From a bacterium (GTDB lineage: Bacteria; Auribacterota; Auribacteria; Auribacterales; Auribacteraceae): DNA of 34,761 nt. Location of the stretch: NCBI GenBank assembly GCA_021161885.1, contig JAGGZS010000023.1, positions 1-34,761 on the forward strand, in the 5' to 3' direction. The translations under genes were made by a program, and so were the position numbers. Shown in pieces: positions 15,301 through 32,497 of the stretch; within the stretch, counting starts at the first letter, position 1, and every line of letters begins with the position of its first letter. The notes under the pieces are model-generated. The model searched no databases and was not told where the DNA came from. It saw only the letters and a program-made list of their open reading frames with translations.

Positions 15301-18300
15301 ACATTTCTGGATTTTCAGTTTTATTTACGACAGCGGGAGAGGTTTTATAAAGATCAACCCATGCCCTGAACCACAGGTTTTTGGGGTTTTTAAACAGTTT
15401 CCTTAAAAGGTTATTCCATATGACTGCTTCCTGACTTTTTTTTGCTATAACCCCTCGCGCCCAATCCCTGAATTCATGTTCAAGAACCGTTTTTAATACT
15501 TTCATGCCGAAAACACGGTCGTTACCGCTCATGTTATCTACATATTCCAAGGTAGATGTGTTCAGATAAATTGTTTTTCTGCTCAAACCGGCATGAGCTA
15601 ACGCATCGCCTCGGAAAAAAACACCTTGTTCATCAACAAGCAAAGTCAAGAAAAAATCTTTAAGATAATCTTTATATTCCGAAGACCTTAAAATCAATAA
15701 AGCTGTTTTAAGAGCTTTTTGCAGTTTTACCCTGTATTGCGGGTTATTGAGTTTAGTTTCAAAATTTTTTCTTGCCGTATTAGATATTTTTAGATTAGCT
15801 TGTAACTTAACGGCTAACTGGGCTGTTGATAAATCTTTATCAAACAAAGTATAGACGAGTTCATCTATATTTGAATAATCCAAAGCGATACTTTTAAGGT
15901 CAATACGGATTGCGTCGCCGTTTTCTATGAGTTTAGATATTTCATTATCCACATTTGCCCTAATTTTCCCGCGGGCTAAACTTTGATTATTACGATTGTT
16001 GTCTGTTTCATCCTGTACTTGCGCTGTCTGCGCCATAATTTCAGGCAATATATTCCATAAAGCGGTAATTGCTCCGATTGAGAACCCAGCCATCGTAAAA
16101 ACTAAATTAATTATGGTTGACACAGGTTCAGCAGTGTCAATCATATATTGAGAAGCCATAGTCGAGAGAAAAGCTCCCAAGAAACCGAAAAATGTTCTTT
16201 GAGTTAATAAATCTGGGTTTGATTTTAGTTGCCTTATTACTCCTGCAACTAACAGTCTTGACGGTTCAACGTATTTATTTTTAAATTCTGCCCATAATTG
16301 AGGAAACACAGGCATAGTAATTGGTCTTGCCAATACCGGTTTAAGCGCGTTATAAGGGCGAATAAGAAGGAAATCACCAACTGTAATAAAATATTCAAAA
16401 AATGACGCGATAAGTGAAGAAAATAAAAAATTAACAGCCATAACAGGCGCCATTAATACGGTTTGAACTTTCTCATATCGACTAGCATGCTTGCCGAATA
16501 TAAAAATTGGAAGCGCAAATATCGCATAACCTAAAACTAATGCCCCAGATATCATCAGCAGCATATCAACTAAATGAAATATCGGTATCATTTCAATGGT
16601 CATAAACCCGAACATAGCAAATACAGGCACAAGCGCTGTATACATAATTGTTGTTATAATAGCCGGTATACGCATGTCCTTAGGCATTTTTGCGCCTTTA
16701 CGCATTAGCTGAAACATTCCGCCCGACCATCGTCTAGCCTGAATCCATTTTCCTTTCAATGTTTCGGGCATATCTGTTATAACCCTGAAATCTCTACGTC
16801 CGAAAAACTTAAATTTAGAATTTTTATTTTGCCTCAGCAAACCGGATAATTCGGCATCGTCAGTTTCAAAAATACCCGAATGCTTTTGTAATGCCCTAAC
16901 TAGATAAGGCACCAAATAACCACCGCCTCCCCCTGGAACCGACATAGTAAAAAAGGTATTTAACGACCTTAACCATGCAAGATAAAGAAAATTTATTTTT
17001 TTAAGAAGCGAGGTGCCTTTAGGCAAAGTGCCGAACGAGGTAGATAAAGGCAGTATATTGGCTATGATACGGTTCCCGTCTTTTTCAACATGACCTAACA
17101 TATTGGCGGCGTCTTTGAGCGCGCCTGATATATCTGTGCCTTCAATGTAAGAATCGCCGTCCATAATAAAAAGTTTTTCAGGCAATTTTTTTATTTTTCT
17201 ATGTTCAGCAAGTGAATATAACCCTAACACCGCATCTCGAATAGCGCCTGTTCTATGCCCGTTTTTATCACGTAAAATCATATTAAAATCATAAACCTGT
17301 TCACCGGTTTCCGGATTAATATAGTTTTCCCATGAAGCAAGTTCGTTTCGTGTTATGCTTTCAAGAGCTTGTAACCCTTGGCGTTCATCATCGGTTATAT
17401 CTGCTTTTGCAAGCCGTAAGGCGATATCTTGCAATTTCGCGTTGAGCAGTTTAATATTATATTTCCTGTTAAAGCGTTTGAGTAAATCTTGTGTTCCGTC
17501 GGTTGAGGCGTCATCAACTATAACGAGTTTATCAAGATATTTTCCTTCATACGCTTTTTTGAGAATATTTTCCATAAGGTCAGGATCATCTCGGGACAGA
17601 AGGTTAAATACCGGAGTAACTATAAAAAAATCCGATGCGAATTCTAAATCTTTTAATTGATCGGCATATTGGATTTCGTCAAGAGGAAGCGGCCGGAATT
17701 CTTCCAAACTGCTAACAGGTATTTTTGAGGAAAACCGGCGTAAATCTATATTATATTTTTCGCCGTATTTATCTGTAAAATCGGCAAGATTTTCTATAAC
17801 AACTTGTTGTTCCTTACCAAATATTTTTTTAAGGTTTGTCTTGTTTAAAGCTGCGGCTCTGCTTAATAACGCCAAAACTTTACCTGCAGATAAAACCCCC
17901 ATCTCATCAATTAATTGTGAAGATATAACAAACTCCGGCAACCCTTTAGGCTGTATTTTGAAATATTCTTTTATTTGTCCGTCAACTTTATGCAGTTCCC
18001 TTATTTCTTTCGGACGATTTTGAAGTTCCGCCCAAAATTTTTCTACCTGTTTGAACGATATTGGTTTTCCTTGAAAATAAACAGGCTCAACTTTCCCTAT
18101 ATCCTCCGCGTGTCCGCCCCGCAGATAATCGCGGTACTCGTGTTCGTAAACCGCTTGCAGAATACGTTTTGAGTATGCCTGATCTTCAGGCTCCATTTCG
18201 GCGATATACATCAGGGTAGACAAATTCAGGTAAAAACTTTTATTTTCAGCACCCACATGCGAAAGGGCTTGCGCGTTATAAAATTCACCTTCCCAATCAA

Positions 18301-21300
18301 GCAGAACGGTTAATGAAAAATCGGAAATTTTGTCGATTATTTTTGAAGACCGTAAAACATCAAACCCGAGAACCAACGATTTTCTCAGCCGTTCTTTGCT
18401 CATCGGGTCAGAGAGCTGTTTTTTTAATTCTTCTTGGGCAGCAGCCGGCAAATCCGTAAATAATCGTTGGAGATTAACTGATGTTTCTTCTGGCGATCCC
18501 TCAAAAAGCGGATTTATTATATCTTCCGATACATTATTGTTCAAGCTATCAAGGGGTACTCTTACCGCTTTGCCGGATAAAATATGTTCTCTTATTATTT
18601 TATTAATATCCTCAACAGATTTTCGCTGAAGGCTTTTTTCTGAACGCACAGTTTGGGGACTTTTTAAAAATTTTTGATCGCCATTAACGGCTTTTTGTGC
18701 GCGGGCAAGTTGTTCTGCCATTACAATATCTATTGTTTGCGACGTTAACTGCGCGTAAGACTCAATAAGGTCTAACGGGAACAAAGAAGCAAACGTCGTT
18801 CCAACCGCTTCAGAATCAAATTTATTTATAAAGGAATTGATATTTTTGCCGTAAGAATTTTTAACGGCTTCGTCAAGATAACTGAGCATATCAAGAGCCA
18901 GCTCAGAATGTTTGTTTAATAAATCTGAAATAATATTTAATGAATCTGTTTTGTCTTTTATATCACGTTCGTTACGTATAGTGGAATTCATATAAGTAGA
19001 AGATACAAGCACATCAACAGCCTCAGCGAAACTATCAAAGCCGGCAGGCATTTGCGAACTGAGTTTAAACTGAAGAGCAAGTTCTTTGTTATTATATAGT
19101 TTTACATCGGACTTGACAATTTGAGATAGAGAATATCCTGTTGAATCTTTAAATAACCGATTAAAAGATGTAAGCGTTAAAGGAATATCCATCTGCTGAG
19201 ATGTTTCAGCAACAATTTCCTCAAGAAAGGCTGTCTGAGCCTTACCGGAAACAGGGGTTCTTAGTAAAGAAAACATAAAATCGACTATTTGGCTTGCTGT
19301 AGATTTATCTAAAAGCTGTTTGCCGGTAAATGACTGCGATAACCGCAAAGCCAACATAGATATTCTATCTATTTCAGTCTGATTAATATACTGCTGGTTA
19401 TTTTTTCGTTTAAAAAACTGTTTTGCCTGCGGATTATTACGCAGTAATGTTTGCGGATATAAACCTGTAATATCCATAACAAACTGTTCAAAATCAGAAT
19501 ATGCTTTATTTGATTTTAATAAAATTGTATTAAGCGCAAGACTGCGCGCCTGATTGTCGGGAAGGTTAGAAAATATTTTCATAAAACTGTTTACAAACCT
19601 AATGGGCGTAACATAAATCTGACCGTTTAAAGCATATTCGATTATTTTAATATCTGTATCTATATTAAACGATTTCAATGGGCCATCCAACTGATTTGAA
19701 ACTTTTTCCGTATATAACCCTACAGCCCAAGCGACAGCCTCATCGCCTAATTCACCGTTAATAGTCTTTAGCGTAGCAGGGGTAAATTTTTTATTTTGGT
19801 CTGTAATCCAGCCATTCATTACTGACAACAGGGTATTCCAAGGATTATCTTTATTGTTCTCAACATATTCCAGTTCAGCTTCGCTAAGAGGCAATCCATT
19901 GGCTATTAGATTAAGATTTTTTATGGTTCTGCGCTGTTCTGCGGTTATATCTTCAGATTGAGAGATAAGATCGTTAAGATCGTTTTCGGAGTAAATTGTC
20001 CGGTCGCGTAAAATTGAACGGATAATCTGTTCGAAATCCATTTTCTTCACTATCTGTTTAACATTGCGCTGTGAAAGAGTATCGTTAAGTTTATTCCATA
20101 ACCGCATATCAGCGAACTGCGCATACCGTTCGTCTTGTCCGAGTTTATTCATCAAACTTTTTAACGCTGAGGCGATTGCTTTACCCCGTTCGGTTTTGTT
20201 AGGAAATTTTTCCGTTACAAAATCAATATATTTTTGCCTGAAATTTTCAGTAATATTTTTAAAAGGAACTTTAAGTATTCCGACTGAGAACTCATTGATT
20301 ATTCCGAATACCTCATTTTGAATTTCCTCAAAATCAGAGGTTGTGCTGTCTTTTATTTTAGATTTAAGTTTATCAACCACACTATCGGCAACTTCGGGCG
20401 ATACCAGTTCCGCTACAAGAAGAAGCAGGGGTAACTGATACATCATTTTAGGTGACTTGTGCATCAGGTATTTAAAAAAATTGGTTTTTGCGTACATATG
20501 GTCTATAAGTTCAAGATTAAATATTGAGTCGAGATCATCAAACAAGCTGTTTTTTTCGTCTTCCGTTAAAGTTTCAGTAAGTTCCAACTTAGCGACTATT
20601 GCCATTAAAGGCGCGAAAACAGCTGATGCTTCAGCGGAATAAACATTATATAGAAGCGGACTTTTTAGGGCGTCATCAACAAAAAGTTTCATTTCATGAG
20701 CTTTTGAGATTTGCACAAGTAAAGCGGCAAGTTTTTCTACTGGAATATCTTTTATTTGATTAAGCAGCACATCAGCGACCGGATTTTCCTCTTTATTTAT
20801 GTTAAGAAGTTTAAACATTCTTTTAACGATATTTATTTCTATTTCATTATTTTCTATATAAATAATATGCGCACCTTGCGGATAACCAGGAAAAGGATAT
20901 GTTTTATCGCTCAGGATATACTGGGCGGGAGCAATATTATAAAACGGATCCTTAATTCTTTTCCCTCTTAAGATTAAAACAGTCTCCTGTTTGCCGTTAA
21001 TGGTTACCTTATGTTCTTCAACGTTATCGTTATAGAAATCAAAAATGTATTCGCCGTTATAAACAATACCTATATGAAAAAAGAAATCAGCATTTATTTT
21101 TGTTCGGAACTCCATAAACATTTCGTTTCCTGCTAACCGGTCGTTAGCGTCTCCGCTTCGCATTAACCTGCCTATTTCAAGCGCATTGGCCATGAAATTT
21201 TCAATATGCTCCGCAGCTTTTTTAAATCCTAAACTTTGGATTTTATCAGTTAAATTTTTAAGGTTTTTAATCGCCTCTGGATCAAGTTCCTGTTTGTTTT

Positions 21301-27300: not shown

Positions 27301-30300
27301 TTTGAGACGAACCGTAATTATCGGCTACGGCAATAATTTTTCCTATAACTATTGAATCCATAATTTGATTGCGGTCGCTTTTGTTTAATGCGTCTAAAGG
27401 CAGATCGAAATTGTCTGTCAAATAGGTATTTAAAAAAGTTTTATCTGAAGTGGATATTTCAATACCCTCATTAATATTTTTCAATAACCCGTAACTGCGA
27501 TTATCATTTTGCACTTCTGTTTTAAAATCATCCCCGATTTTAAGTTGAGTCTTATTTATAATATATTCTACCGCCTTTTGTTCTAAAGACGATAAAACCG
27601 AAAATCCTGAATCTTCTTGTGTTTTTTCAATAAAAGCGTTAACAAGCTCAATACTCCTTTGTTCGTATCCTAAACTTAACGCAGCACCTTCCGGCGCTGG
27701 TGTGAAGTATCCTAACCCGCTGAAATAAATAGCCGTTCTCATCAAAAGAGATGATCTCGCTTGATTCTTAAATTTAATATTGTCAAAAAGATTTTCAACG
27801 AAAGAAAAAATTTCATTTAAATGATGTTCATTGTGGAAAGTAACATCGCTGCGCCTACTCTTAGGGTTAGCCATATAGTCAATGACAAAATTTCTTACTA
27901 ATTCAAGATTTGGGTCAGCGCTGTATCTTTTAAGAACTTTATCGATGTTTTGTGCGTTTCGCTTACTCAATGAAGATTCTATTGTTTCGGTTTTGTTTTG
28001 GATAACCTCGCCAACAGGACTTGTTAAAGAAGATTTTAATTGGTTTACAAGAGAAACATTTGTTTTTATGATATTCATCAAATTAGTGTCTGCTAAAACT
28101 TTTTTAAACACATTTTTTAATAATTCCCGTTTCTCTTTGCCGGTTCGGTTATCGGAATATTCGCTTATCAATCGGTTTAACAATTTTTTTATTTCAGAAT
28201 CGCTTAACCGCTCCCCTTTACTGAGCAGCTCACCTGCCATAGGGATATCGGTATCCGCCAAATTTATTTTTATATTTAAAAATTGTTTTAATTTATCCGC
28301 AGCAGATGAGGTTTGGGTTACAAGGGATGCAGCAGCGGGAAGCGGTTGCCCGATTACAGTATCAGCGCTAAAAAGAACCTGCCTAACCGTAGATATAAAA
28401 TTATTATTTCCTTCAGCGGATAGAATCGTCTCATAAATATTATTTTTGAATTGAGTGCCGGGCTGTTGAGTTTGTCTTAATACAAAACTAAACGGTTTTT
28501 CGTATCCATCGATATGCACAGTTATTAAATGAGAATACTGGTGTTCATCTTTTCCGAGAAACTCCACTTCAATATTGGATATTGCCTCTGGAGTTATGTC
28601 TATTAAGCCGTGGGCAAGAAAAAGCATTTCCTGAACGATATGGGTGTTTTTCAAAACATTTTCAACACTTTTAAAAATTTCAGGACCACGGTTTGCGCCC
28701 ATTACAGGATGATCAAACTCTTTGCTGTTTGCGTCATAGGCTGTCGACGGGGATATTTTCCAATTCTCTTTATCTATAGAATCAGCGAGTTTAGGGATTA
28801 TTTCAGATATTCTTGCATCCATTTTCTTAAATGCTGATTTCGCAAAATTTACTATCAAGTCATCTTTAGCGTTAAGTATCCACCATACGATTTCTTTACG
28901 AACAGCAAGGAACTCATCGGCATTAGTAAACGGTATTCTTATTAGATCGATAATCAAATCCGTTACTTCATTTTGTTCCTGATAAGATAATTTTTTCTCT
29001 TTATATTTTGATAACGATTCAGACGCTACGGCTATTTTAGAGAATACATTTATGGTTTCGGTAGATTTTTTTTCTTTAACGATTTCAGCTGCTGTAATGC
29101 CCGCTTTTTTATCGAATTGATGTTCAAGCCGTTTGGCCTTTTTTATATCCGATGCTATATGGTCTCTTAAACCGTTGCGAAGTTCAGCTCTTTTAGCTGC
29201 GGTTAAAGTATGCCAGCTGACAGGTTCAAGTCCGGCGAGTTTCATTGCTTCATTCTGCCACATAATAAGTTCCAATGCTTCATGCAGTGCGAGTTCTTCA
29301 GTAAAGGCGTTGCCCGCGATATAAACCGAATTTCGTTCAAGCCCTGCGTGTCCGCGCTGATTGCCGACGAGGATATTTTCACCTTCAATCACATAAACTT
29401 TAATTCGTCGTCCATTTACAACTACATCGTCCATTCGTTTTAGTTTACCGTCGGAATATGCTTTTCTTATCTGGTCGTTGACTTCCTTGTGGGGACCTGC
29501 TTTAAGCCTAATATCCGCAAAATTTATATCTTTTGCCTTTGAAGAGGGTTCGCTGCTGTCATCAATCGCTTTTCGTATTACCGTTCCGTTTACCTCAATC
29601 ATACCGTTAGAAAAAACTCTTGTAGTTGTTCCGTCGTTATGAATTATTCTCAACACGTTGCCTTCGCCGTCTTCAAACCCCCATAATTTGACATTAATAA
29701 ATCCAATAGCGATATCATTATCGGTTTTAAAATTTACTTCGATTTTATCGGTTTCAATTTGTGATATAACTTGAAAAAAAGTGTTTGACTGGGGAACTCT
29801 ATCTGCGTCAGCTATTTGTCTAATCTGTTCAACACCTGATGGTTTAGGTGGCAGTTCGGAAAAATCTGATGATTCCGGCGGGAAAGCATCCAGCACAGGT
29901 CTTTGAAGTTCCTGCATTTTTTTTCTTGTTTGCTCAATTTGTTTGGCGAGGTCTCCTGTTTCTTTAACATGAAGATCAATCTTTAGGGTGTTGCCTCTTC
30001 CTAACTCCCTAATAATGTCAAGTTTATAGGCTTGCTGGTCTACGATAAAAGAAGTTGAAAAATCTCTGGGCAACTTTTGGAAAAAATTAAACCAAAACTG
30101 AGCGGGGACTCCGTTTTCAATATCAATTGAAGTTATTCCTGCTTGTTCAAAATAGTTCCTGATATAATCCGGCAGCGATTCAGCATCTTGTGTGATATTC
30201 CAAACATATCTTGAATCTTTTGTTTTTTCACTTAAATTAGCGATGACTTTAAGTATAGGGCTAACCGCAAATTCGTTTCCGTCAATATTGGTTATTAAAT

Positions 30301-32482
30301 TAAGGCTTGCTAATCTATTAATTATAACCGCCTGATTAATTAACGATAAATCCGAAACGGAGATACCTATTTCTTTAAGGGACTGTTTAACTTTTTGTTC
30401 GTGCGGTGTAAGCTGATCTGACGGTTTTTTAAGTTTATCTATTAAACTTTGTATTGAATCTGGTGAAATAATCTGTCCATTGAGAAGAACAGGAATTATG
30501 GATGCCAAAATTTTGTCTGATTTTTCCCGTATCTCTTCCATTTTCATGCGGTACAGTTCGCCGTCGACTATATCCATATTTTGTCCGTTAATCGTAGCGG
30601 TAAATATGGGATTGAGATTTTCTAATTCCTGAGTTGAAAATTCTACAAACGCAAACGGCTGGTTACCGATAACAAGAGCAACATGCAGCCCGCCTGTGGG
30701 AGAGGGGGTAATATTAATTCTTGTTAATTCAGGGAAAGACCCTTGCGACCAACCCTGCAGGAAAAAATTGTTGACGATATCGGAGAAAGAACGCAAAGCA
30801 TCTTGCGAGGTAAGTATATCTTTATCAATCCCCGCGAATCGATAGACGCCGTAAGCCACCATAAGCGCTTTTAATTCCGCCTTGAAAGATTGAGCTCCGG
30901 CAGCATCTAACAACGGCGGGCTGCCGAGTTTTGAAGCTACCGCAAGAGCGCTCGCCTGTTGGAGAACATTTGTAAGGCGTTCTTCAAAAGGAGATTTTTC
31001 GTTTAACATCATAGATATATAGGCTTTTTTATCGTCGCTTTCGTGGATCAAAGGGGCTACCACATAATAGGAAATACCTTCTTCTTTAAGGAGTTTCATC
31101 ATACCGTCCGTATGAAACCCGCCGGTTATAAGCACTCCTTTTTTAATATTTGCCAAATCCATTTCAGTTAACATATTGTCCACAAGATACCAATCTCGTT
31201 TTTTTGATAATGTGTAAAAATCTTCAAGAAGAGGTAAACTGTTGTCAACCATAGATATATTAGAGTCTATAAAATACATAAATTGAAAGCGGGCCGCAAA
31301 TTTTTCGATAAAATCAATAATATTTTTGGTCTTAAATTTTTCTTTATTCTCAACATAATACTCAAGGTCTCTTGTCGATAATTTAAGGTCAAAAAAGTTT
31401 TCAAGGATATTTACGACTTTATAATATTGGTCAAGCTGTTTTTGTTCATCTTTTATATAGAGTTTATTTTTTATTTCCCGCAAAATGTCTTCCGACTCAT
31501 AAAAAAGTTCTTCCATATTGATTTTTTCGTATAATCGCAGATAAGGCAGGTAATCGTTAAAATTTGGATAGCCGTTTAAATCTATGTTTACGGAATTAGC
31601 TTTTTTAACTATTGCTTCGTGAAAATCAAGAGGTTTGACATATTTTAATTTATATCCGAGATTAAGTTTAAGAAGCTCACTTGCTTCTTCCTTAGGCAGG
31701 GACTTTACAAGTTTTTCGATAATCTCATTGCGTTCAGCGCTTAATTTGTCAAAATCTATTTTTTTTTCAAGTTCGTGTGACTGCATCATCAAACTGTAAT
31801 TTTCATAAAGCCAAAGGTCTATTTCATATTTTTTCACAAACTTATTCAAATAGGCGCTGAATCTATAAAAATTAATATTGCCGGTTTCATAATCCTGATA
31901 TATTTTGTCAATATCTAATAAATCTCCCTGAAAAAGATGAGATTTTATTTTATTTAACGTTTTTTTGAGGCTCACGCAGTACTTTTTGGCATTTTTGCTT
32001 ACTTTCAAAGAATTAACTAATGCCTGATAATTTTTTAGGTAAAGCTGTTTATCTTCAACCCCTACTAAATTCATCTCGGAATTTTGGTTATTCAAAACAA
32101 AACATTCTGAACCTGAGAGAACTCCTCTTTTCATAAAATATTTAGTTACATCGTACAGCACTTCTTTATCGGGAAACGAGCTAATGTCGGGCGACTCGAT
32201 TTTTCCTTCCGCCCCTTCCAGCCCAATTATTTTAAATCCCTTTGCCGACAATGAATTTAAAATTTTATAGGTGTTGCTTTGGGCGTCAAAGTTGCAATGC
32301 GCGTTTTTAATATGGACTATAACGCGTTCGTCATCGCCTTGAAATTTTTCAAGAATTTTGCCGTAAAACCTTGAAATTTTAAGGTCGTTATCTGCGTAAG
32401 CAATATTACTAAAGAGCATTGCCTCCATAAGTATCAATGCGCAAAGGCGCATAAACAACTTACTTTTCGGTTTGAATAACAT
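3380..32482 (-). CDS. Giant multidomain protein, 9,700 aa (signal peptide, GT2 synthase with membrane helices, kinase-like domains, HEAT repeats, zincin-like HE modules)
   Basis: The frame is uninterrupted for 29,103 nt. ATG is at 32480-32482 with AAGGAG at 32492-32497 (9-nt spacer), and the stop is TAA 3380-3382. Every other frame over this span is fragmented (the largest antisense ORF is 184 aa). Ordered catalytic motif sets occur along the whole length (see sub-features). Confidence 0.92.
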   Translation of the reverse strand: MLFKPKSKLFMRLCALILMEAMLFSNIAYADNDLKISRFYGKILEKFQGDDERVIVHIKNAHCNFDAQSNTYKILNSLSAKGFKIIGLEGAEGKIESPDISSFPDKEVLYDVTKYFMKRGVLSGSECFVLNNQNSEMNLVGVEDKQLYLKNYQALVNSLKVSKNAKKYCVSLKKTLNKIKSHLFQGDLLDIDKIYQDYETGNINFYRFSAYLNKFVKKYEIDLWLYENYSLMMQSHELEKKIDFDKLSAERNEIIEKLVKSLPKEEASELLKLNLGYKLKYVKPLDFHEAIVKKANSVNIDLNGYPNFNDYLPYLRLYEKINMEELFYESEDILREIKNKLYIKDEQKQLDQYYKVVNILENFFDLKLSTRDLEYYVENKEKFKTKNIIDFIEKFAARFQFMYFIDSNISMVDNSLPLLEDFYTLSKKRDWYLVDNMLTEMDLANIKKGVLITGGFHTDGMMKLLKEEGISYYVVAPLIHESDDKKAYISMMLNEKSPFEERLTNVLQQASALAVASKLGSPPLLDAAGAQSFKAELKALMVAYGVYRFAGIDKDILTSQDALRSFSDIVNNFFLQGWSQGSFPELTRINITPSPTGGLHVALVIGNQPFAFVEFSTQELENLNPIFTATINGQNMDIVDGELYRMKMEEIREKSDKILASIIPVLLNGQIISPDSIQSLIDKLKKPSDQLTPHEQKVKQSLKEIGISVSDLSLINQAVIINRLASLNLITNIDGNEFAVSPILKVIANLSEKTKDSRYVWNITQDAESLPDYIRNYFEQAGITSIDIENGVPAQFWFNFFQKLPRDFSTSFIVDQQAYKLDIIRELGRGNTLKIDLHVKETGDLAKQIEQTRKKMQELQRPVLDAFPPESSDFSELPPKPSGVEQIRQIADADRVPQSNTFFQVISQIETDKIEVNFKTDNDIAIGFINVKLWGFEDGEGNVLRIIHNDGTTTRVFSNGMIEVNGTVIRKAIDDSSEPSSKAKDINFADIRLKAGPHKEVNDQIRKAYSDGKLKRMDDVVVNGRRIKVYVIEGENILVGNQRGHAGLERNSVYIAGNAFTEELALHEALELIMWQNEAMKLAGLEPVSWHTLTAAKRAELRNGLRDHIASDIKKAKRLEHQFDKKAGITAAEIVKEKKSTETINVFSKIAVASESLSKYKEKKLSYQEQNEVTDLIIDLIRIPFTNADEFLAVRKEIVWWILNAKDDLIVNFAKSAFKKMDARISEIIPKLADSIDKENWKISPSTAYDANSKEFDHPVMGANRGPEIFKSVENVLKNTHIVQEMLFLAHGLIDITPEAISNIEVEFLGKDEHQYSHLITVHIDGYEKPFSFVLRQTQQPGTQFKNNIYETILSAEGNNNFISTVRQVLFSADTVIGQPLPAAASLVTQTSSAADKLKQFLNIKINLADTDIPMAGELLSKGERLSDSEIKKLLNRLISEYSDNRTGKEKRELLKNVFKKVLADTNLMNIIKTNVSLVNQLKSSLTSPVGEVIQNKTETIESSLSKRNAQNIDKVLKRYSADPNLELVRNFVIDYMANPKSRRSDVTFHNEHHLNEIFSFVENLFDNIKFKNQARSSLLMRTAIYFSGLGYFTPAPEGAALSLGYEQRSIELVNAFIEKTQEDSGFSVLSSLEQKAVEYIINKTQLKIGDDFKTEVQNDNRSYGLLKNINEGIEISTSDKTFLNTYLTDNFDLPLDALNKSDRNQIMDSIVIGKIIAVADNYGSSQTYPYLAGLIQPELSADQSPSACETIFAQIANIPGINGLIMGQRLVYLLDDDVIGLNKIIPESEKQSRNKNLDILRDIGNHLQALKNTQLSQTDKLNHLEALKVFVDEGIQKGVFNESMKTILYKEIMDIAGKNATQPAVVQGVFFEGINKGAASGAFKFAGESVIKGIPLVGSNAVNGQSGFVSIRPDETAAHYRVRVRKVLPAVVSALYRMSANIDNKWSFKNIEPQGIVLKLDESGGVTAVINADNAGNQRADINKSFDLLLLLQQVVENNVIAPMPIDVRKSIGDENTLILILNTIINEADGLNFIKQSLSELDSLLIDSDTGTKKTDVQTDGLLFKINDYKNLRNQIKDFASEHFTNLPVIQSKFEAKADNLVNSIMNSIIQKQSINQDIFGQIKQLADMLNSTKSGELRNIVISKLVSEKFTRSISDIDIHLLNKLYSSIFDNLNGQPADELYLRLENLVKNEWGLAELPVLREIRSKKLAGTAVNIQIDSFLEQIKNNKGVISIGSINIKVPDELIGYILLLSDQLTNLKTEGNIADYNKKFDFIISAVLASSGLSTQQRKTIINALPVPFERQRRLDTLLGVLLDNADPAGLYWIDADKQLFETAAAAGINLSFDKRHDVAAKNYVNVTSALPIYTLASDINRNFQVINIYPELNNPYFSLEYKSDVGVNMFSVFNAKNSTVRASLETAGYHGYFKTDTIKNGQVSWLIDEMFPVTIDRFSIASEAEQPSRLNVHSEDVSSLTYQARMDSIINEIRNPLLEKHGYKDVLEMLGEYEQYYVYMSAEDRISAQIPIRLKNYLTDFMNRFTVERAKDNARLRMLRDYIAEAKGNKEKRAKRIEFNKKVDNGEIKIKPNPFTDMPVNEVLAEGAIKGIAVMVTDPNTNLDISDSLSPFNDPNSNFYKARKRAEQENIPLVLIHHYPPQAKAQSVMPVIRSKVSSLDNFKNFEKLTSADLMAINGLLKTLTDIEFSQSNEFNAVKKELLWWVTNSKNNKLRKTAWSNFARLYSKLDNLLEQKNDAKIRGNWHISHADIYNTISKDMDVSAEKPATEILSEIENILKNTNLVKQMLFAIYGLTDVPASSIKNIHIDYLQKGALKYAHLVSVIIEGQPEPYRFVLNQHKKGDMGLLIKNLEPFVLGEQAGQEAISPVFAGIVNEFDGNTQADYNFFIESYLQGQPLVRLISQESTEDMVHMLGAETEQEYSERLSNIISLASGVLYRQAELSMLEYIPVVNPSGIMIRMNENNKYEAGLANVTAIEKTTDFFDIVLYIDMVLKSGVLNSLNPEMKNIYIETYLPETIFDGIIQSDPVTGIKVLEQTRNSLQRFIQSRKEIHSYQIVKKIGGYQRTLEELIVFEKKLTDYIDSYKTNNQQENTTEKPAYPVETAEKLAKLYADINLSREQSQGIVSTEIKFAEVHNFKDIAAQFLQLKNQGVTIPKNIQPLFSEAYFNKLEQSSNQAGLAVLTDILKSVVNDPAHPAAVPYLAQMEKNDISRLIDNLTSFVSGDFTNITFDISDTQNILQQLPAQSFVGERLNNALLAMNNKKPYTVINIEYDFRHGLGNADKINLIIERAASQQGLTDKDIILIKTVSNLDDGSFNISLNADTLANLRSNIPAIAYGTTFENLAFTFKKTISREGISQSNLSFSEQLQQVGGLGSEFIRNEYALYQMAGLSSVPVQSLTKELRVVSLLNREIGAEFKIRDYFKQTEINESNYKHFFSIIDLLYRVGIVSNDNYLKIFQAKKSNSFQQIKPIVFSSMDESKKPAETDTQALLRHISEFNIKRARLDKVVQIARVLIENPSLSSKYPNLKAQLGDVIDFAVKFRTTKDSSDYQWSPSELARERILINNIDKYEAVIGRTLKSDTEGSFKTVVSRLPAESDVNSAFQGTAVFMRNALVGYLPLKGQVPSRIARNNQRLAIDAILRGLNMVQRQSDNETLKDILNSSNPLENIVKHMNSLPVQQENELPVLDIVDETTRISMGDKLAKSIDALVENKQELDPEAIKNLKNLTDKIQSLGFKKAAEHIENFMANALEIGRLMRSGDANDRLAGNEMFMEFRTKINADFFFHIGIVYNGEYIFDFYNDNVEEHKVTINGKQETVLILRGKRIKDPFYNIAPAQYILSDKTYPFPGYPQGAHIIYIENNEIEINIVKRMFKLLNINKEENPVADVLLNQIKDIPVEKLAALLVQISKAHEMKLFVDDALKSPLLYNVYSAEASAVFAPLMAIVAKLELTETLTEDEKNSLFDDLDSIFNLELIDHMYAKTNFFKYLMHKSPKMMYQLPLLLLVAELVSPEVADSVVDKLKSKIKDSTTSDFEEIQNEVFGIINEFSVGILKVPFKNITENFRQKYIDFVTEKFPNKTERGKAIASALKSLMNKLGQDERYAQFADMRLWNKLNDTLSQRNVKQIVKKMDFEQIIRSILRDRTIYSENDLNDLISQSEDITAEQRRTIKNLNLIANGLPLSEAELEYVENNKDNPWNTLLSVMNGWITDQNKKFTPATLKTINGELGDEAVAWAVGLYTEKVSNQLDGPLKSFNIDTDIKIIEYALNGQIYVTPIRFVNSFMKIFSNLPDNQARSLALNTILLKSNKAYSDFEQFVMDITGLYPQTLLRNNPQAKQFFKRKNNQQYINQTEIDRISMLALRLSQSFTGKQLLDKSTASQIVDFMFSLLRTPVSGKAQTAFLEEIVAETSQQMDIPLTLTSFNRLFKDSTGYSLSQIVKSDVKLYNNKELALQFKLSSQMPAGFDSFAEAVDVLVSSTYMNSTIRNERDIKDKTDSLNIISDLLNKHSELALDMLSYLDEAVKNSYGKNINSFINKFDSEAVGTTFASLFPLDLIESYAQLTSQTIDIVMAEQLARAQKAVNGDQKFLKSPQTVRSEKSLQRKSVEDINKIIREHILSGKAVRVPLDSLNNNVSEDIINPLFEGSPEETSVNLQRLFTDLPAAAQEELKKQLSDPMSKERLRKSLVLGFDVLRSSKIIDKISDFSLTVLLDWEGEFYNAQALSHVGAENKSFYLNLSTLMYIAEMEPEDQAYSKRILQAVYEHEYRDYLRGGHAEDIGKVEPVYFQGKPISFKQVEKFWAELQNRPKEIRELHKVDGQIKEYFKIQPKGLPEFVISSQLIDEMGVLSAGKVLALLSRAAALNKTNLKKIFGKEQQVVIENLADFTDKYGEKYNIDLRRFSSKIPVSSLEEFRPLPLDEIQYADQLKDLEFASDFFIVTPVFNLLSRDDPDLMENILKKAYEGKYLDKLVIVDDASTDGTQDLLKRFNRKYNIKLLNAKLQDIALRLAKADITDDERQGLQALESITRNELASWENYINPETGEQVYDFNMILRDKNGHRTGAIRDAVLGLYSLAEHRKIKKLPEKLFIMDGDSYIEGTDISGALKDAANMLGHVEKDGNRIIANILPLSTSFGTLPKGTSLLKKINFLYLAWLRSLNTFFTMSVPGGGGGYLVPYLVRALQKHSGIFETDDAELSGLLRQNKNSKFKFFGRRDFRVITDMPETLKGKWIQARRWSGGMFQLMRKGAKMPKDMRIPAIITTIMYTALVPVFAMFGFMTIEMIPIFHLVDMLLMISGALVLGYAIFALPIFIFGKHASRYEKVQTVLMAPVMAVNFLFSSLIASFFEYFITVGDFLLIRPYNALKPVLARPITMPVFPQLWAEFKNKYVEPSRLLVAGVIRQLKSNPDLLTQRTFFGFLGAFLSTMASQYMIDTAEPVSTIINLVFTMAGFSIGAITALWNILPEIMAQTAQVQDETDNNRNNQSLARGKIRANVDNEISKLIENGDAIRIDLKSIALDYSNIDELVYTLFDKDLSTAQLAVKLQANLKISNTARKNFETKLNNPQYRVKLQKALKTALLILRSSEYKDYLKDFFLTLLVDEQGVFFRGDALAHAGLSRKTIYLNTSTLEYVDNMSGNDRVFGMKVLKTVLEHEFRDWARGVIAKKSQEAVIWNNLLRKLFKNPKNLWFRAWVDLYKTSPAVVNKTENPEMFSAHQKDIGVIDPVEFGEDIIDFAKVDAFWKHLQKSRDAKINYNNETVSLKTLLSDIKNNTDIPIEKRNARIRTLTERYVRESADKISSAIFINYDLYKAMTSRTDAIGRVKDDAALQYENLKDELTQLNETLDVDLTDIIEDIKTLIWLYSEFNDTIGTGHDAKDKKQADGMLHSLDFNLLKKEGIIKQIQQLHKKGINASIFLDANELQTEDQRFYLLNNLNLILSELQDIPDEIVNSLPNWGNEIALSAKPIFKSRIKGINKVRKGWRRHGEIFVSDKTPRKTFIHEYIGHHALLTLMEQAVLEPDKINDLEKIMPADDIMRILFACCNTYSIKDSLRTIRFSVNVNMNFYPSKKLKNAINEYNKQTPENYQIFDLGETKDGYRIEKIPFQFLQWAIDNNKQLFWALIVGGIYFSTPDDIRINLIKNGKTEDIYLTNILEIIAFATSNDDTPKYSSNPIFSYNRAAVRKILAANYLKGWLWTEGKGWQKVQQKTGTAYSGEKTVVLSDIQTDKEHKIEVQVKASLSGLLKKEPQWTAQAPLIDPETLNSITTSWDNYSYTPKMANSLKSYISTLSGWIKQDGKQISEQISMMTILSDTYMSDLADMLGNIIEQINHSPEGIKTVKISPTAASGTVILHLASINDLQNIGVDSLANKRNGEIHIYLPVEYITSNTTVFAQMLRSQIDESAYELPHMASLALESVFNRTGNRQPGLASDRIKTDFISRINNARTLEDFQKLEKYFQTIIRNETSMIKQVDKATNLNLMHKKVAEKLINNVTFYAKYSSAIVKENIIRLSGKAGDYSIENVVRENNKSIVFRGQDKNGNTVLIKMIKLPLFDGFSRTQLENLFKDWQREMSLTKTMYPEQTAITGDNLLEENPFLSIKLDNPLTMEQKTKNISSPETLLSFAQSVLEQLIGMYDKKIVLNDITPFDMFIGSDNTLVLTGLSQALKIGQSSPFSEPSLTAKNIFYSSPEKIDAANAQNKVQDLLRKISSLKTADDIIAQLKNIKIIFESVFTESELKYSTSYNTLINVVMPQIADELKPFDVSVPTQINNKLRDTINRQVVQTMYEILSEQNDVFILGIIFAELLTGHHPVSAKLQLLSTDQLRNFDETKFTADLIQSGDFDFDFMESMLGTEITKILKQSLAVNKTERYKTAKEFLTALNDALSNKDLKLSVSRRKELPDVRLAALNQADNLSFGNICGTDKHRHDAFNQMIKKLFDKKPQPLPFKEERKQAKSLLSELNYAELSVNPLLNKMFEEKGINSESDFNKFIDNISTALDNTQIYSLPADNILFWVGNRYAAAHYGHYQDRNNIYMSGKFANLLTDKEKSVVVLHEAFHLAGLSHEEAEAIQTFILDQKKSYDTVLNFMHIAADLEVTLKTNVPAVINGKYSYTPVTDFLAVFAPALKQALRSGTSFNQKAFVSLMSNRGFSENFTASVFKELNEMLKLNAIGYSIENRALENIVDKNSVTQSDIRKNINRLAGFNLIDRSVAVDTLTAVKDKALPLLITALNKENPNIREGVLYVIGQTGNADAMADVFAMINDRSEKVALQAQKTVFKLADKSVIPFMRKIISQQSDDTSVVLAIKVLDKLKADLNVDADNLLIHPNPDVRKAAGDFLKSRGIDRSNQLKLSDNIWNSLNLMATAENSLEFNDLIDILEQYGDDLIAYLRLGLNNQEAGIVDASAILLGRKGDKSAVRHLLHLVYKNKGFQSTIAVETLKKKIFNEELLRLYIAGDNIEKEQAALAMGRNKYSDAMNTLGNSIVDKNSPYSFYVKQAALKAMIDIAGDNYIGVLADILRKLDRRDLTADDRAVLIEIPSMMLEKGDKKSAPILRHLLYADRISIKRETVKALGELGNRKDIPTLKLYAGLYPELTPDVEAAVKKLDGPLAKILSGIGFFMGGIPAPEYHCDDFQLHKNNYTGLNEILANISYAKVPILITENGTPYEFTMKIDDDFADSEHEAPVTNEMIETWIKDILTGEEQILKNLQGSEIDFVMLTKSFRIAENHLDDNFIGINKAIFQIKNPVVIELLFKMFLRHELLHEAGLSPKDESELKVWESVQFRESLQQLLSGLEKAKMPLENFIEQIKPAFSNKAFLIDVLTFIDNGTLPAKMIGILDDMDITLPYDELISKLAKSMGLEIGGLLRSRDESEHLKLILFQLDQFRHEYAFDYAPNAEEIINLFESLVDTPYSRNTDFITARRELSWWIDNAKDKRIAEKAKSFNDKLYTMLDNMLDNNAGIEQTTAGWRVIKKFMPKVADTKQKQRMQWTVTYSEKYNGTFPDFYNEDGLVNNGPKITEEITKSLKETNLLRRTLFVLFDRKDITEDMIESIHIDYIGRGYFKYAHKITVFVKGEHQPMQFILKSKRRPDSKFDIENINLILAYGEKRGKGKTDLVPLVASRAFKPGEIAAEPVFDVYTESVLPGEPMLVENRDGKIISGQLMMKPNEKASEYMKRLSDILKVGVGALYQVHKNFNFIKLYYDRNPSNIMVSGDKDAGYNAAIVDLGYVSSTDKYSDLLMFMARYFNNVVSGIVKNNYPQLSSTLDTDIFTVKMLFEGILASDKVDGLDFLSSAYADLTDIIDQNKGKDKILRIGTWHKTELENIADSLKQFLVNKNVYINLQSGFDETDISQKQTDKYEIKDETIDQLPAAAWIADDLWNAFSAINNGKPPVVIQAHGINAANRKDLTDQLALIDDDQMVVIIMSDFNSDYVDHRVIADKAGYVRKNIKQIISGRVDYDGEFEYLLAFRKYFKEDMIHFNNMRIGRVYTDQLQGNKLMINTFERFVNILEHYYPGKITAEILHPSSKHLMAKYFDAAYESDFNNQMTGTIKDGTNQQKGEITLEGISAEELKSSQKIQKKMQTKQPQKPASQIEQANKELTQENITKLPVSLWIAPNLWNTLTEINNGNTALVIQTHSSFMTNKVMVEAQLEDVPEAQVVTLITSEKQKDKIDFRVLVDTAGNIKKNLYNVLRGNLSQDYGLFLIDFTIYPELKYTHLNYLSLGRENKDKLRGKGLLSDTFTNFANILEQFYPGSITMSLIDPEIVHLMQKHFHAQYIQEEKSDNTMRGVVGEHEDDINIADVGIKAGSHSNVNKAIRKAVLSGNLIRSGEIVYDGNPVRVYIVKNASVLTGVQRAHAGIELNCIYIAEKAYDKTLAMHEVVEMHLWQKKALNIAGIIDKSWQDLTDAKRAELTRELRKWISGNIEDAQQLEAKYHTIANQIAPVTSKTELEADDNMETPADNATYKSIDKNRNIERPVEVSSFTIEKLRSYILLYSDLPVSQLLYNLDADSLKFDTFVNGMYSKVIEKFKLSDKKPVSKAVLLSIQDFVSEFVQKQIGGTEEEIVKSAVDAQEFTDRIINTAIDEAGGVENLVPRGLKAKMLEIGMNSIQTRINTLNKDNPKTAELLQNVLDYIKQAKIAVIPSNDGSYGISTTLNGYHFTDARVIGGQKVIFLGQGFFDALLRGGMEEVLIHIGAREYLKSLPENSALTDADLNIKAARLRDYFGNKLPDIIETLTLNGLENQRYKPLIDRIIKMGNIKKTRPLSPVEINEIISQLREIFELELDIDFDYVPDKADFEISKSLLRKSVNVIKATMSKPDLFLFPKELILGELSPANFMLKETFRKFKMENRKNEGRQAVFVAISLNDKNTGIFKTELDKTTERREGDSSNNLFDFIVTVKSVDELIGLIKTEYPDLSESDIAGRVKMIDIPGGKLAEYSQNNGLRYQIVDSGLVMQGMLENSKAVFMIDILRSFGSKKVPNDIKIIDISDRIILDKDSNSKIGDIMAVFNDFIRQADAIKGKIFTYSSLTDIFYSKVLPSLDTELKAKVEQKFRTKDLVIRDLLFKKLMAKEVEKQDVASVFMHFISHQAVSGTEFTLLEQKVKEQLDLYFIKQVYDRLRAINKDNPPKLGDFIHRVESLGIMSVTQNFAKYLRIEANARSVNSSVIDAINQSAHFDEAA
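5615..6040 (-). other. Giant protein aa 8815-8956: module X copy 2
   Basis: DINIADVGIKAG...RAHAGIELNCIYIAEKAY...LAMHEVVEMHLWQ, with H8897 at 5792-5794. The first D and the HE histidine are 82 residues apart, exactly as in copy 1. Confidence 0.6.
6086..6622 (-). other. Giant protein aa 8621-8799: module V copy 2 (179 aa, exactly 240 aa after copy 1)
   Basis: ENITKLPVSLWIAPNLWNTLTEINNGNTALVIQTHS...KLRGKGLLSDTFTNFANILEQFYPGSITMSLIDPEIVHLMQKHF, with E8621 at 6620-6622. RGKGL plus the following helix resembles GNAT motif A (R/QxxGxG/A). Confidence 0.5.
6806..7342 (-). other. Giant protein aa 8381-8559: module V copy 1 (179 aa; possible GNAT-like C-terminal half)
   Basis: ETIDQLPAAAWIADDLWNAFSAINNGKPPVVIQAHG...QLQGNKLMINTFERFVNILEHYYPGKITAEILHPSSKHLMAKYF, with E8381 at 7340-7342. 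Confidence 0.5.
7520..8707 (-). other. Giant protein aa 7926-8321: module Y copy 3 (WW motif + protein-kinase-like fold with catalytic residues intact)
   Basis: ARRELSWWIDNAKDK (W7943 at 8654-8656); IESIHIDYIGRGYFKYAHKITVFVKGEHQPMQFILKS (Gly-rich loop and Lys); VYTESVLPGEPM (hinge-like); LYYDRNPSNIMV (D8220 at 7823-7825, N8225); AAIVDLGY (D8242, DFG-like). The pattern resembles the ABC1/RIO/APH-type kinase families. Confidence 0.7.
9098..9280 (-). other. Giant protein aa ~7735-7795: zincin-like module with canonical HExxH (HELLH)
   Basis: NFIGINKAIFQIKNPVVIELLFKMFLRHELLHEAGLSPKDESEL, with H7775 at 9158-9160. It shares the pattern HExxHxAGLSxx[DE]xE with the HEAFH module. Confidence 0.5.
9655..10780 (-). 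other. Giant protein aa ~7235-7610: HEAT (PBS-lyase type) repeat array
   Basis: Helical-pair repeats recur about every 30 aa, for example LLITALNKENPNIREGVLYVIGQTGNADAM, LIHPNPDVRKAAGDFLKSRG, QEAGIVDASAILLGRKGDKSAVRHLL and RISIKRETVKALGELGNRKDIPTL (P7240 at 10763-10765; E7583 at 9734-9736). Confidence 0.7.
11213..11425 (-). other. Giant protein aa ~7020-7090: zincin-like module with canonical HExxH (HEAFH)
   Basis: AAAHYGHYQDRNNIYMSGKFANLLTDKEKSVVVLHEAFHLAGLSHEEAEAIQ, with H7069 at 11276-11278. Confidence 0.5.
11783..12886 (-). other. Giant protein aa 6533-6900: Hanks-type Ser/Thr protein kinase-like domain, probably a pseudokinase, with a large insert in the C-lobe
   Basis: The kinase subdomains are recognisable:
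- VLIKMIK (strand-3 Lys, K6561)
- IVLNDITPFDMFI in place of HRDxKxxN (D6658 at 12509-12511, terminal N replaced by D)
- VLTGLSQ in place of DFG (Asp lost)
- YSSPE (APE-like)
- DVFILGIIFAELLTGHHPV (subdomain IX)
- NKTERYKTAKEFLTAL (subdomain XI Arg)
The glycine-rich loop lacks glycines. Confidence 0.75.
14393..14530 (-). other. Giant protein aa ~5985-6030: HE module variant (HEYIGHH)
   Basis: GWRRHGEIFVSDKTPRKTFIHEYIGHHALLTL, with H6016 at 14435-14437. It has the same order as the other HE modules: a basic/His segment, a hydrophobic strand, then HE. Confidence 0.3.
15200..15940 (-). other. Giant protein aa 5515-5761: module Z copy 2, immediately downstream of the membrane cluster
   Basis: ISKLIENGDAIRIDLKSI...LRSSEYKDYLKDFFLTLLVDEQGVFFRGDALAHAGLSRKTIYLNTSTL...TVLEHEFRDWARG...HQKDIGVIDPVEF...FWKHLQ, with H5669 at 15476-15478. 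It matches Z1 apart from an insertion of about 50 aa after the HE motif. Confidence 0.6.
16028..16669 (-). other. Giant protein aa 5272-5485: cluster of about five transmembrane helices following the GT2 domain
   Basis: The hydrophobic stretches are IPAIITTIMYTALVPVFAMFGFM, IPIFHLVDMLLMISGALVLGYAIFALPIFIF, VQTVLMAPVMAVNFLFSSLIASFFEYFITV, TFFGFLGAFLSTMASQYMI and VSTIINLVFTMAGFSIGAITALWNIL. The helix count is by eye. Confidence 0.7.
16703..17632 (-). other. Giant protein aa 4951-5260: family-2 glycosyltransferase catalytic domain of the processive (cellulose/chitin/hyaluronan/NodC-like) type
   Basis: FFIVTPVFN opens the domain. The motifs are VIVDDASTDGT (D4990/D4991, nt 17498-17515), FIMDGDSY (D5108-x-D5110, nt 17153-17161), FETDDAE (T5207-D5208-D5209, TED-like, about nt 16856-16867) and QARRW (Q5248-W5252, nt 16727-16741). 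Confidence 0.85.
18020..18607 (-). other. Giant protein aa 4626-4821: module Z copy 1 (SHVG...FYLN...EHEYRD module) immediately upstream of the GT2 domain
   Basis: IIREHILSGKAVRVPLDSL...LRSSKIIDKISDFSLTVLLDWEGEFYNAQALSHVGAENKSFYLNLSTL...AVYEHEYRDYLRGGHAEDIGKVEPVYF...FWAELQ, with H4781 at 18140-18142. It is collinear with aa 5515-5761. Confidence 0.6.
23351..24373 (-). other. Giant protein aa 2704-3044: module Y copy 2 (WW motif + protein-kinase-like fold, catalytic residues lost)
   Basis: AVKKELLWWVTNSK (W2719 at 24326-24328) ... IKNIHIDYLQKGALKYAHLVSVIIEGQPEPYRFVLNQ ... EYIPVVNPSGIMI ... GLANVTAIE. The positions matching the D, N and DLG residues of Y3 are V, G and ANV. Confidence 0.6.
28463..28936 (-). 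other. Giant protein aa 1183-1340: module Y copy 1 (WW motif + kinase N-lobe-like part only)
   Basis: FLAVRKEIVWWILNAKDD (W1200 at 28883-28885) ... ISNIEVEFLGKDEHQYSHLITVHIDGYEKPFSFVLRQ aligns with Y2 and Y3 up to the strand-3 region. No catalytic-loop equivalent follows. Confidence 0.5.
29105..29530 (-). other. Giant protein aa 985-1126: module X copy 1 (AHAG...IYIA...HExxE zincin-like module)
   Basis: DINFADIRLKAG...RGHAGLERNSVYIAGNAF...LALHEALELIMWQ, with H1067 at 29282-29284. By hand count it is about 45% identical, ungapped over 139 aa, to aa 8815-8956. Confidence 0.6.
31058..32335 (-). other. Giant protein aa ~50-475: possible ChaN/TraB/Tiki (erythromycin-esterase superfamily)-like domain
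   Basis: VIVHIKNAHCNFDAQ...IIGLEGAEG (H57, H62, E89) resembles the N-terminal GExH..H..Q...lE motif block. VLITGGFHTDGMMKLLKEEG (H457, codon 31112-31114) resembles the C-terminal GxxH..G...L motif. This is motif-level resemblance only. Confidence 0.3.
32393..32482 (-). other. Giant protein aa 1-30: Sec-type signal peptide or N-terminal anchor
   Basis: MLFKPKSKLFMRLCALILMEAMLFSNIAYA|DND has a basic n-region (K4, K6, K8, R12), a hydrophobic core and an AxA-type site (AYA). Confidence 0.55.
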
Positions 32483-32491
32483 AATAAGAGA

Positions 32492-32497
32492 CTCCTT
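32492..32497 (-). promoter_or_regulatory. Shine-Dalgarno sequence of the giant gene
   Basis: The plus-strand CTCCTT is AAGGAG on the coding strand, 9 nt upstream of the ATG. Confidence 0.6.

Follow-up and report, generated by a model that had tools for sequence, protein, structure and literature searches.

Signal-led giant multi-enzyme proteins are already known from the Omnitrophota, where two preprints (West-Roberts et al. 2023, bioRxiv 10.1101/2023.11.21.568195, and a 2026 preprint, 10.64898/2026.06.07.730766) describe giants with a signal peptide and transmembrane helices ("SP+TM") or with a signal peptide only ("SP-only"). Both call the predicted outside location of the cytoplasmic-type domains odd, and one of the two notes for the SP+TM giants that this puts "multi-Pfam metabolic content" on the "periplasmic/extracellular face". 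Here we analyze a protein of 9,700 amino acids (aa), encoded by one open reading frame (ORF) of an Auribacteraceae bacterium (assembly GCA_021161885.1, contig JAGGZS010000023.1). The whole stretch of 34,761 nucleotides is referred to as the window (contig C318 in our numbering) and the protein as the giant. It combines a predicted Sec-type signal peptide with a family 2 glycosyltransferase (GT2) domain that is followed by its own membrane helices, and it belongs to a large family of proteins built on the same plan.

With the Omnitrophota SP+TM and SP-only giants our locus shares the giant ORF, the affiliation to PVC-group nanobacteria, the signal peptide, the small number of membrane helices and domains of the PGM/GNAT/methyltransferase/HAD type. 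Unlike the classes named by West-Roberts et al. 2023 (Archaeovorin or Dockerin-type), the giant has, according to Pfam, no TSP3, dockerin or discoidin repeats and no SecA_DEAD domain. Term searches of the two preprints returned no mention of the conserved head domain, the cysteine (Cys) depletion or the embedded GT2 synthase with hairpins that are described below. What is particular to the giant is the embedded synthase with its own hairpins, i.e. the presence of two opposed topology signals in one chain, together with a lineage-specific motif in the C-terminal tail.

Other known systems resemble the giant in part. The MARTX toxins (such as Vibrio RtxA) are likewise very large secreted enzyme carriers, whose enzymes act in the cytoplasm of another cell and which contain a processing protease. 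They hold the TIKI-fold effector endopeptidase RRSP (PMC6254334), whereas here the candidate TIKI-like domain forms the N-terminal head common to the family. Secretion of MARTX toxins is of type I, without a Sec signal, and they contain glycine-rich repeats and a cysteine protease domain, while the giant has a Sec leader and no RTX repeats; delivery into another cell is hypothetical here. TpsA proteins (such as FhaB) share with the giant the Sec signal, an N-terminal domain conserved across paralogs and a very long, variable, Cys-poor passenger, but the head of the giant is no TPS beta-helix domain, the cargo consists of globular enzymes and no TpsB partner is present in the genome. Finally, BcsA, hyaluronan synthase, NodC and the GtrB/DPMS-type enzymes have the same D, DxD, ED, Q(R/Q)xRW set directly before membrane helices. 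In contrast to these membrane-integrated GT2 synthases, the module of the giant is found at residue ~5,000 of a signal-led chain, has no helix before the glycosyltransferase domain and scores below the Pfam cut-offs.

The giant starts with MLFKPKSKLFMRLCALILMEAMLFSNIAYA, followed by D31. The preliminary description of this DNA, which concerned window positions 16028-32482 (residues 1-5485 of the giant), had taken the first thirty residues for a cleavable signal peptide ending in AYA↓D, and all three regions of such a peptide can be recognized. The n-region contains four basic residues (K4, K6, K8 and R12), the core comprises the 15 residues L13-I27, broken by E20 (Kyte-Doolittle (KD) value 1.74 over 19 residues), and the predicted cleavage site A28-Y29-A30↓D31 has Ala at -3 and -1 and no Pro at +1. 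The ATG at 32482 is well supported as the start codon by the AGGAG sequence 9 nt upstream. In the AlphaFold2 (AF2) model of the N-terminus the leader forms a helix (aa 8-25), and a disordered linker (aa 25-32) sets it off from the head.

A leader of this type is common to the whole family. A Lys/Arg n-region and a hydrophobic core lie 45-110 aa before the sequence HIQDAH in 21/21 complete N-termini of paralogs and in 79/79 loci of other genomes, and in each complete paralog copy the motif (V/I)IHIQDAHC is found 25-40 residues past a small-x-small site. The part before the core carries a mean net charge of +3.2 over 99 family sequences (above zero in 97, zero or lower in two), and the 10-residue KD value of the core is 1.79 in the weakest case, with a median of 2.61. 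The character of the core is thus retained in 99/99 relatives, while its sequence is not. Most of the listed leaders end in (S/A/G/T)-(F/W/Y)-A with acidic or polar residues next, as judged by eye, an automatic site search being too crude for a usable count. The leaders of BamA and of three secretins from the same genome (ending ...VYA↓Q, ...VTA↓Q, ...CMA↓D and ...SYA↓Q) resemble that of the giant. We found no sign that the N-terminus is something other than a signal; it looks like a genuine Sec signal, and the opposite is unlikely. A Glu in the middle of the core, unusual for Sec signals, occurs in a subclade of the family (LILMEAML, LLLIETMI, VILIESLV, LLLVELLF; giant, P0002, L042, C8, C96, C326 and C245).

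Between this leader and the GT2 domain we find nothing that could span a membrane, as the preliminary description had claimed. In a Kyte-Doolittle scan of all 9,700 residues (19-aa window, threshold 1.6) no more than two places pass, aa 9-27 and a cluster spanning aa 5275-5478; a second scan with approximate values of a summed Hessa-type scale returned the same places and one marginal segment, aa 4861-4879. I5272, placed after the GT2 domain in that description, is the first residue of the first span. The marginal segment (MGVLSAGKVLALLSRAAAL) was the sole candidate for a hidden transmembrane helix upstream of the GT2 domain, and we rejected it. Its sequence, including the Lys/Arg positions, is conserved in five orthologs from other metagenomes, and one ortholog has an Asp within it, which indicates a soluble helix rather than a membrane span. 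The segment precedes the GT2 domain by ~70 residues and, in an otherwise poor AF2 model, belongs to a small alpha/beta unit that reaches a pLDDT of ~67-83.

The GT2 domain appears intact. Its motifs VIVDDAS, FIMDGDS, GGGGG, ETDDAELS and QARRW (aa ~4990-5252) are invariant in eight orthologous modules, and the set typical of processive GT2 enzymes is complete. PF00535 and PF13632 match 8/8 of the orthologous modules (best E-value 1.4e-8), and the giant's own domain falls below the gathering scores (20.2 vs 23.3 bits for PF00535, 17.9 vs 27 for PF13632). A word-indexed homolog search and a metagenome locus scan with the piece comprising the GT2 domain and the transmembrane block yielded no matches and no relatives, respectively, and Foldseek with the model of this piece returned only GtrB (probability 0.41, not significant).

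The membrane block that follows reads as a series of hairpins with short acidic tips (Table 1). In orthologs the tip between helices a and c is short and acidic (TDG, MEG or ADVG), so that these helices form one hairpin rather than three helices. The AF2 model of this region, calculated from eight sequences, has a pLDDT of 60 and is unusable for counting spans. A further indication comes from an Auribacterota ortholog of 14,323 aa with the same layout and leader, encoded on a 958-kb contig (G001:C11:539385-582372, L117-L119). A stretch of 8,900 residues free of hydrophobic segments leads up to two tandem modules, each a GT2 domain with transmembrane helices (QxRRW at 8909 and 9797). An even number of spans in the first of the two blocks is required if both GT2 domains are to lie on the same side. 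The second of these modules seems to lack the last hairpin. The block of the giant is thus likely to contain four or six spans, with the N-side (aa 501-4949), the GT2 domain and the C-side (aa 5479-9645) on one side of the membrane, as judged from hydropathy and alignment. The suggestion of the preliminary description that an odd number of helices might put the two halves on opposite sides is accordingly improbable.

Over the whole length of the giant Pfam reports nothing beyond HEAT_2 and two weak matches, to Pkinase and to GT2, and within aa 1-4800 nothing at all at E<=0.01. The N-side contains two kinase-like modules, both decayed, with loss of the catalytic Asp/Asn and of the Asp of DxG. 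The C-side contains a region similar to Hanks-type kinases (weak Pfam match at aa 6805-6890) and HEAT repeats at aa 7218-7287; a third kinase-like module on this side retains D-x4-N and DLG. Profile searches of the PDB with the kinase-like modules returned nothing meaningful, and comparison of the giant with itself by BLASTP gave nothing useful on internal repeats. Judged by its motifs, the GT2 domain is the only secure cofactor-dependent enzyme of the N-side, and the "about 5,200 aa of cytoplasmic-type chemistry" attributed to the region before the first span was an overstatement. Two modules paralogous to each other flank the GT2 domain and the membrane block (window ~18100-18500 and ~15200-15900, aa ~4660-4800 and ~5500-5640); each starts with SL(Q/A)R... 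and contains H-x-G...Y-L-N...HE(Y/F)RD, and this bracket is conserved in orthologs.

The conflict between an export signal and enzymes of the cytoplasmic type was described for this one protein; the conflict is real, but it is a property of the whole family. By tblastn, over 20 further long ORFs of the same genome begin with a counterpart of residues 1-~540 of the giant, and a pattern scan of 185,579 species genomes, built from five closer members of the head alignment, detected at least 554 relatives, nearly all of them in Omnitrophota or Auribacterota. The closest relatives of the head and the ortholog of the giant likewise come from genomes of Candidatus Auribacterota and Omnitrophota, members of the PVC group. 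In most paralogs (2-4.7 kaa) the leader is the only hydrophobic segment, and the Pfam domains found behind it are all of the cytoplasmic cofactor-dependent kind: glutamine synthetase (GS), phosphoglucomutase/phosphomannomutase (PGM/PMM), hexapeptide transferases, uracil phosphoribosyltransferase, CofD with an ARMT1 phosphatase, HAD, GNAT, S-adenosylmethionine-dependent methyltransferase and GATase. Three GS domains (937 bits in total), two PGM/PMM sets and three GNATs were counted. Stand-alone GS-like and PGM genes are also present in the genome, and the copies borne by the giants are thus additional. One paralog, C326, has a single late transmembrane helix with Arg/Lys after it, the orientation expected if the bulk of the protein is outside. 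With its signal and head followed by unrelated enzyme modules, the giant fits the layout of these paralogs and is a member of a large signal-led "head and tail" enzyme-carrier family of the Omnitrophota and Auribacterota. Among the paralogs, one of 2,770 aa (contig C327, L030) carries three tandem GS domains (aa ~1100-2770) behind the signal and head, and a separate GS-like gene is found on contig C91.

Two loci in which head and body are split between ORFs were considered as natural tests of whether the body needs the leader, and both were discarded, as both splits look like lesions. In contig C184 (reverse strand, positions 2273-2276) a single in-frame TAG separates a head ORF of 705 aa from a continuation of 2,599 aa in the same frame; besides a nonsense lesion, it may represent a site of readthrough or the true boundary between two genes. 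In contig C96 (reverse strand, ~2380-2480) the head ORF and a body ORF of 2,238 aa overlap in different frames, and SFKISSSKLGQL is encoded twice at the junction, as if a short duplication, or else an error of the assembly, had shifted the frame of a giant gene.

The conserved head ends at aa ~500, past which the members of the family diverge. In an alignment of 21 family members H62, E89, E126, R429 and H457 are invariant or nearly so, and the AF2 model (pLDDT 85.7, pTM 0.75) reveals a split alpha/beta core with a helical insert. The TIKI superfamily, which unites Tiki, TraB/PrgY, ChaN, the erythromycin esterases, HopBA1 and RRSP, is characterized by a core of parallel beta-sheet, a 2His/2Glu set and a conserved basic residue (PMC6254334). 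The conserved residues of the head have the composition 2His/2Glu/Arg and may be equivalent to the catalytic residues of the TIKI proteins. Similarity searches point in the same direction below the level of significance: PF04187 matches 1/21 full heads (E = 0.004) and 5/21 core-only sequences (best E = 0.042), PF05139 matches 1/21 heads, and the highest probabilities in a Foldseek search with the head model belong to EreC (0.28) and HopBA1 (0.20), neither of them significant. The lack of a significant Foldseek match is probably due to the helical insert of 300 aa; profile searches of the PDB with the head and with its core were empty. We regard the head as a candidate hydrolase of the TIKI/ChaN/erythromycin esterase type, for which the evidence is convergent but sub-threshold.

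Apart from the leader and head, the family is characterized by a roughly tenfold depletion of Cys. The giant contains 10 Cys in 9,700 aa (0.103%; binomial P = 2e-45), compared to 1.405% in the 977 ordinary ORFs without a leader or transmembrane segment, 0.66-0.74% in the stand-alone GS and PGM, and 0.13-0.44% in BamA and the secretins. The depletion extends to both halves and to the enzymes: there is 1 Cys in the 4,389 residues of aa 561-4949, none in the GT2 domain and membrane block, and 5 in the 4,220 residues of aa 5481-9700, while the three GS domains of the paralog have none in 1,670 aa and the two PGM sets none in 1,200 aa. Protein size was ruled out as the cause, given that non-family giants of the same genome (2.4-5.0 kaa) keep 0.6-0.9%. 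A similar paucity of Cys characterizes autotransporter passengers, TpsA proteins and substrates of type I secretion, and is typical of proteins that cross the outer membrane unfolded.

The C-terminus is also shared. A motif at the extreme end, [LIFVMY][DE]x[AST][ALMI]-COOH, is present in 14/20 family members with a natural stop (paralogs in L021-L035) and in 7/1,812 ordinary ORFs; the ortholog of 14,323 aa ends with ...KFDESA. The motif, which may be a sorting, tethering or protease-recognition signal, is common to the giant and to paralogs without a transmembrane segment, and the C-terminus of the giant therefore probably meets the same fate as theirs.

How can a Sec signal and a nucleotide-dependent synthase be reconciled in one chain? 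We propose, tentatively and as a possibility that falls somewhat short of an even chance, that the whole chain is exported and one-sided, its enzymes working outside the cytoplasm of the producer. According to this scenario, a true cleavable Sec signal, cut after A30, would carry the TIKI-like head and then the remaining chain across the inner membrane, and the hairpins of the GT2 block, with four or six spans, would keep N-side, GT2 domain and C-side together on one side of whichever membrane holds the block, namely outside the producer's cytoplasm. The near-lack of Cys would fit unfolded travel past the periplasm. The modules that need nucleotides (the GT2 domain and the one intact kinase-like module of the giant; the glutamine synthetases, phosphoglucomutases, GNATs and methyltransferases of its sisters) could work only where nucleotides exist, i.e. 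in or at another cell, or on leaked contents of prey. The route past the outer membrane and the site of action of the enzymes are, like the export of the whole chain, inferred. The proposal draws on the conserved predicted leader, the Cys depletion of both halves, the shared tail and the behavior of the paralogs; LepB (signal peptidase I), BamA and secretins are all encoded in the genome.

Several observations speak against this proposal. GT-A/GT2 synthases use nucleotide sugars at the membrane's cytoplasmic face, and all catalytic motifs of the GT2 domain are under purifying selection. The Lys/Arg pattern of the block (16-17 in the loops on the GT2 side vs 0 in the 17 residues of the tips) follows the classical positive-inside direction, with the GT2 domain and both flanks in the cytoplasm, although the tips are short and the difference is statistically weak (P = 0.11). 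The helices of the block have summed scores of 0.2-1.3 and would stay behind in the inner membrane of the producer as the chain passes through Sec, which makes delivery of this particular protein to another cell hard to picture. One non-family giant with a leader, which looks exported, has 0.74% Cys, so that the depletion is no general mark of export in this organism. Neither the gene of the giant nor that of its ortholog is adjoined by secretion genes, and a TpsB-type partner is absent, the only Omp85 protein of the genome being BamA.

Of the explanations offered in the preliminary description, export of the N-terminal half and processing into pieces both survive. The latter leads to the strongest rival of whole-chain export, which we consider unlikely but worth serious attention: a polyprotein that exports no more than its signal-led head, or a short stretch at its N-terminus, and is cut before the remainder is threaded through Sec, while that remainder inserts in the ordinary way with its flanks in the producer's cytoplasm. 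The cut could be made by the TIKI-like head, by a zincin-like module or by a host protease. This would reconcile the signal with the chemistry of the enzymes, as UDP-sugars and ATP are at hand in the cytoplasm, and the Lys/Arg pattern of the membrane block fits a GT2 domain inside; the tandem GT2 modules of the ortholog behave as ordinary synthase units. The 2His/2Glu/Arg set of the head resembles that of active TIKI-family endopeptidases, and West-Roberts et al. 2023 also raise the possibility that C39/S8 domains cleave giant proteins to yield smaller polypeptides. However, a de novo k-mer search of this genome found no recurrent joint or cut-site motif and no enriched 5-mer in the family (RSExR and GARLA occur 0-1 times per protein), and a head that acquires its fold only once exported cannot sever the chain on the cytoplasmic side ahead of its passage through Sec. 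Severing also leaves the conserved C-terminal tail without an obvious role, and the enzyme parts lack Cys in the manner of exported proteins, in contrast to the GS and PGM that occur as stand-alone cytoplasmic enzymes.

Whole-chain export can be taken one step further, to a Sec-led, Cys-free carrier that delivers working enzymes into another cell, where the GT2 synthase would insert from the cytoplasmic side of the target and use its UDP-sugars. We regard this as improbable. If true, it would amount to a prey- or host-directed metabolic effector system, unlike delivery of type I, III, IV or VI.

The first explanation of the preliminary description, according to which the N-terminal segment is no export signal in vivo and the whole protein is cytoplasmic, tethered only by aa 5272-5478, is more doubtful still. 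It offers the simplest placement of the GT2 domain, the kinase-like modules and the HEAT repeats, and Glu20 in the hydrophobic core, as in the subclade of relatives mentioned above, could be cited in its favor. Nonetheless, the leader is kept as a feature in every relative, mostly with the small-aromatic-Ala ending, it matches the leaders that bona fide outer-membrane proteins carry in this genome, AF2 sets it apart from the head, and the depletion of Cys would be unexplained.

We judge it very improbable that aa 5341-5375 cross the membrane once, which would give an odd number of spans and place the N-side and GT2 domain outside and the kinase-like and HEAT regions of the C-side in the cytoplasm. 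Helix e is indeed just 12 residues long, and the low-confidence AF2 model draws aa 5335-5384 as a single long helix, but the loop between helices e and f, with its 8 Lys/Arg, would then be outside, the tandem GT2 modules of the ortholog would be on opposite sides, and the GT2 domain would still be on the wrong side; moreover, both halves are equally depleted of Cys, and the C-terminal tail is common to paralogs without a transmembrane segment. Self-processing by HExxH modules, as suggested in the preliminary description, finds no support here, the conserved TIKI-like head being a better candidate for a protease. Such probability as is left after these readings we reserve for mechanisms outside them.

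The features of the giant are collected in Table 1. The host genome is a metagenome-assembled genome of 2.56 Mb in 345 contigs (37% GC, 91% complete, 0.4% contaminated). Upstream of the giant gene and transcribed divergently are a gene for a lipid A acyltransferase and an ACT-domain gene; downstream follows a gene of the NAD-dependent epimerase family and then, ~1 kb past the 3' end of the giant, an IS3-family transposase (window 943-2303, plus strand) with orfA-like helix-turn-helix ORFs and an rve integrase core. An ORF of 184 codons lies antisense within the giant gene (window 27882-28436, plus strand) and is probably spurious.

Table 1. Features of the giant gene and its product in the window.
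Feature	Residues (aa)	Window position	Strand	Basis or remark
Giant ORF, single, 9,700 codons	1-9700	3380..32482	minus	ORF translation
Ribosome-binding site AGGAG, 9 nt before ATG		32492..32496	minus	sequence read
Predicted Sec-type signal peptide, predicted signal peptidase I site AYA↓D	1-30	32393..32482	minus	residues, hydropathy, family conservation
Conserved head domain, split alpha/beta core with ~300-aa helical insert	~38-500	30983..32371	minus	alignments, AF2
N-side, ~4,450 residues, no Pfam match, no membrane-grade segment	501-4949	17636..30982	minus	Pfam, hydropathy
Rejected helix candidate MGVLSAGKVLALLSRAAAL	4861-4879	17846..17902	minus	summed scale 5.5
GT2 glycosyltransferase domain	4950-5262	16697..17635	minus	motifs, Pfam in orthologs
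Membrane block, predicted hairpins with short acidic tips	5272-5478	16049..16669	minus	hydropathy, ortholog alignment
Helix a	5272-5296			
Tip a-c	5297-5306			acidic, EMIPIFHLVD
Helix c	5307-5330			
Loop c-d	5331-5340			basic, KHASRYEKVQ
Helices d and short e	5341-5375			d 5341-5361; e 5364-5375, 12 residues
Loop e-f	5376-5429			54 residues, 8 K/R
Helix f	5430-5448			
Tip f-g	5449-5453			DTAEP
Helix g	5454-5478			
C-side, no membrane segment	5479-9645	3548..16048	minus	Pfam, hydropathy
Loosely conserved C-terminal tail, ~55 aa, ends ...HFDEAA-COOH	9646-9700	3383..3547	minus	family comparison

In the two preprints, signal-led giants full of cytoplasmic-type enzymes figure as a defining yet unexplained trait of Omnitrophota-type nanobacteria, and the giant described here sharpens the puzzle. 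It constitutes a compact object for deciding between exported enzyme sets and bacterial polyproteins, and concrete experimental handles are provided by its conserved head, by the C-terminal motif that it shares with its relatives and by the loss of Cys specific to the family. If the enzyme sets are exported, there would be consequences for how these bacteria feed on or manipulate other cells.

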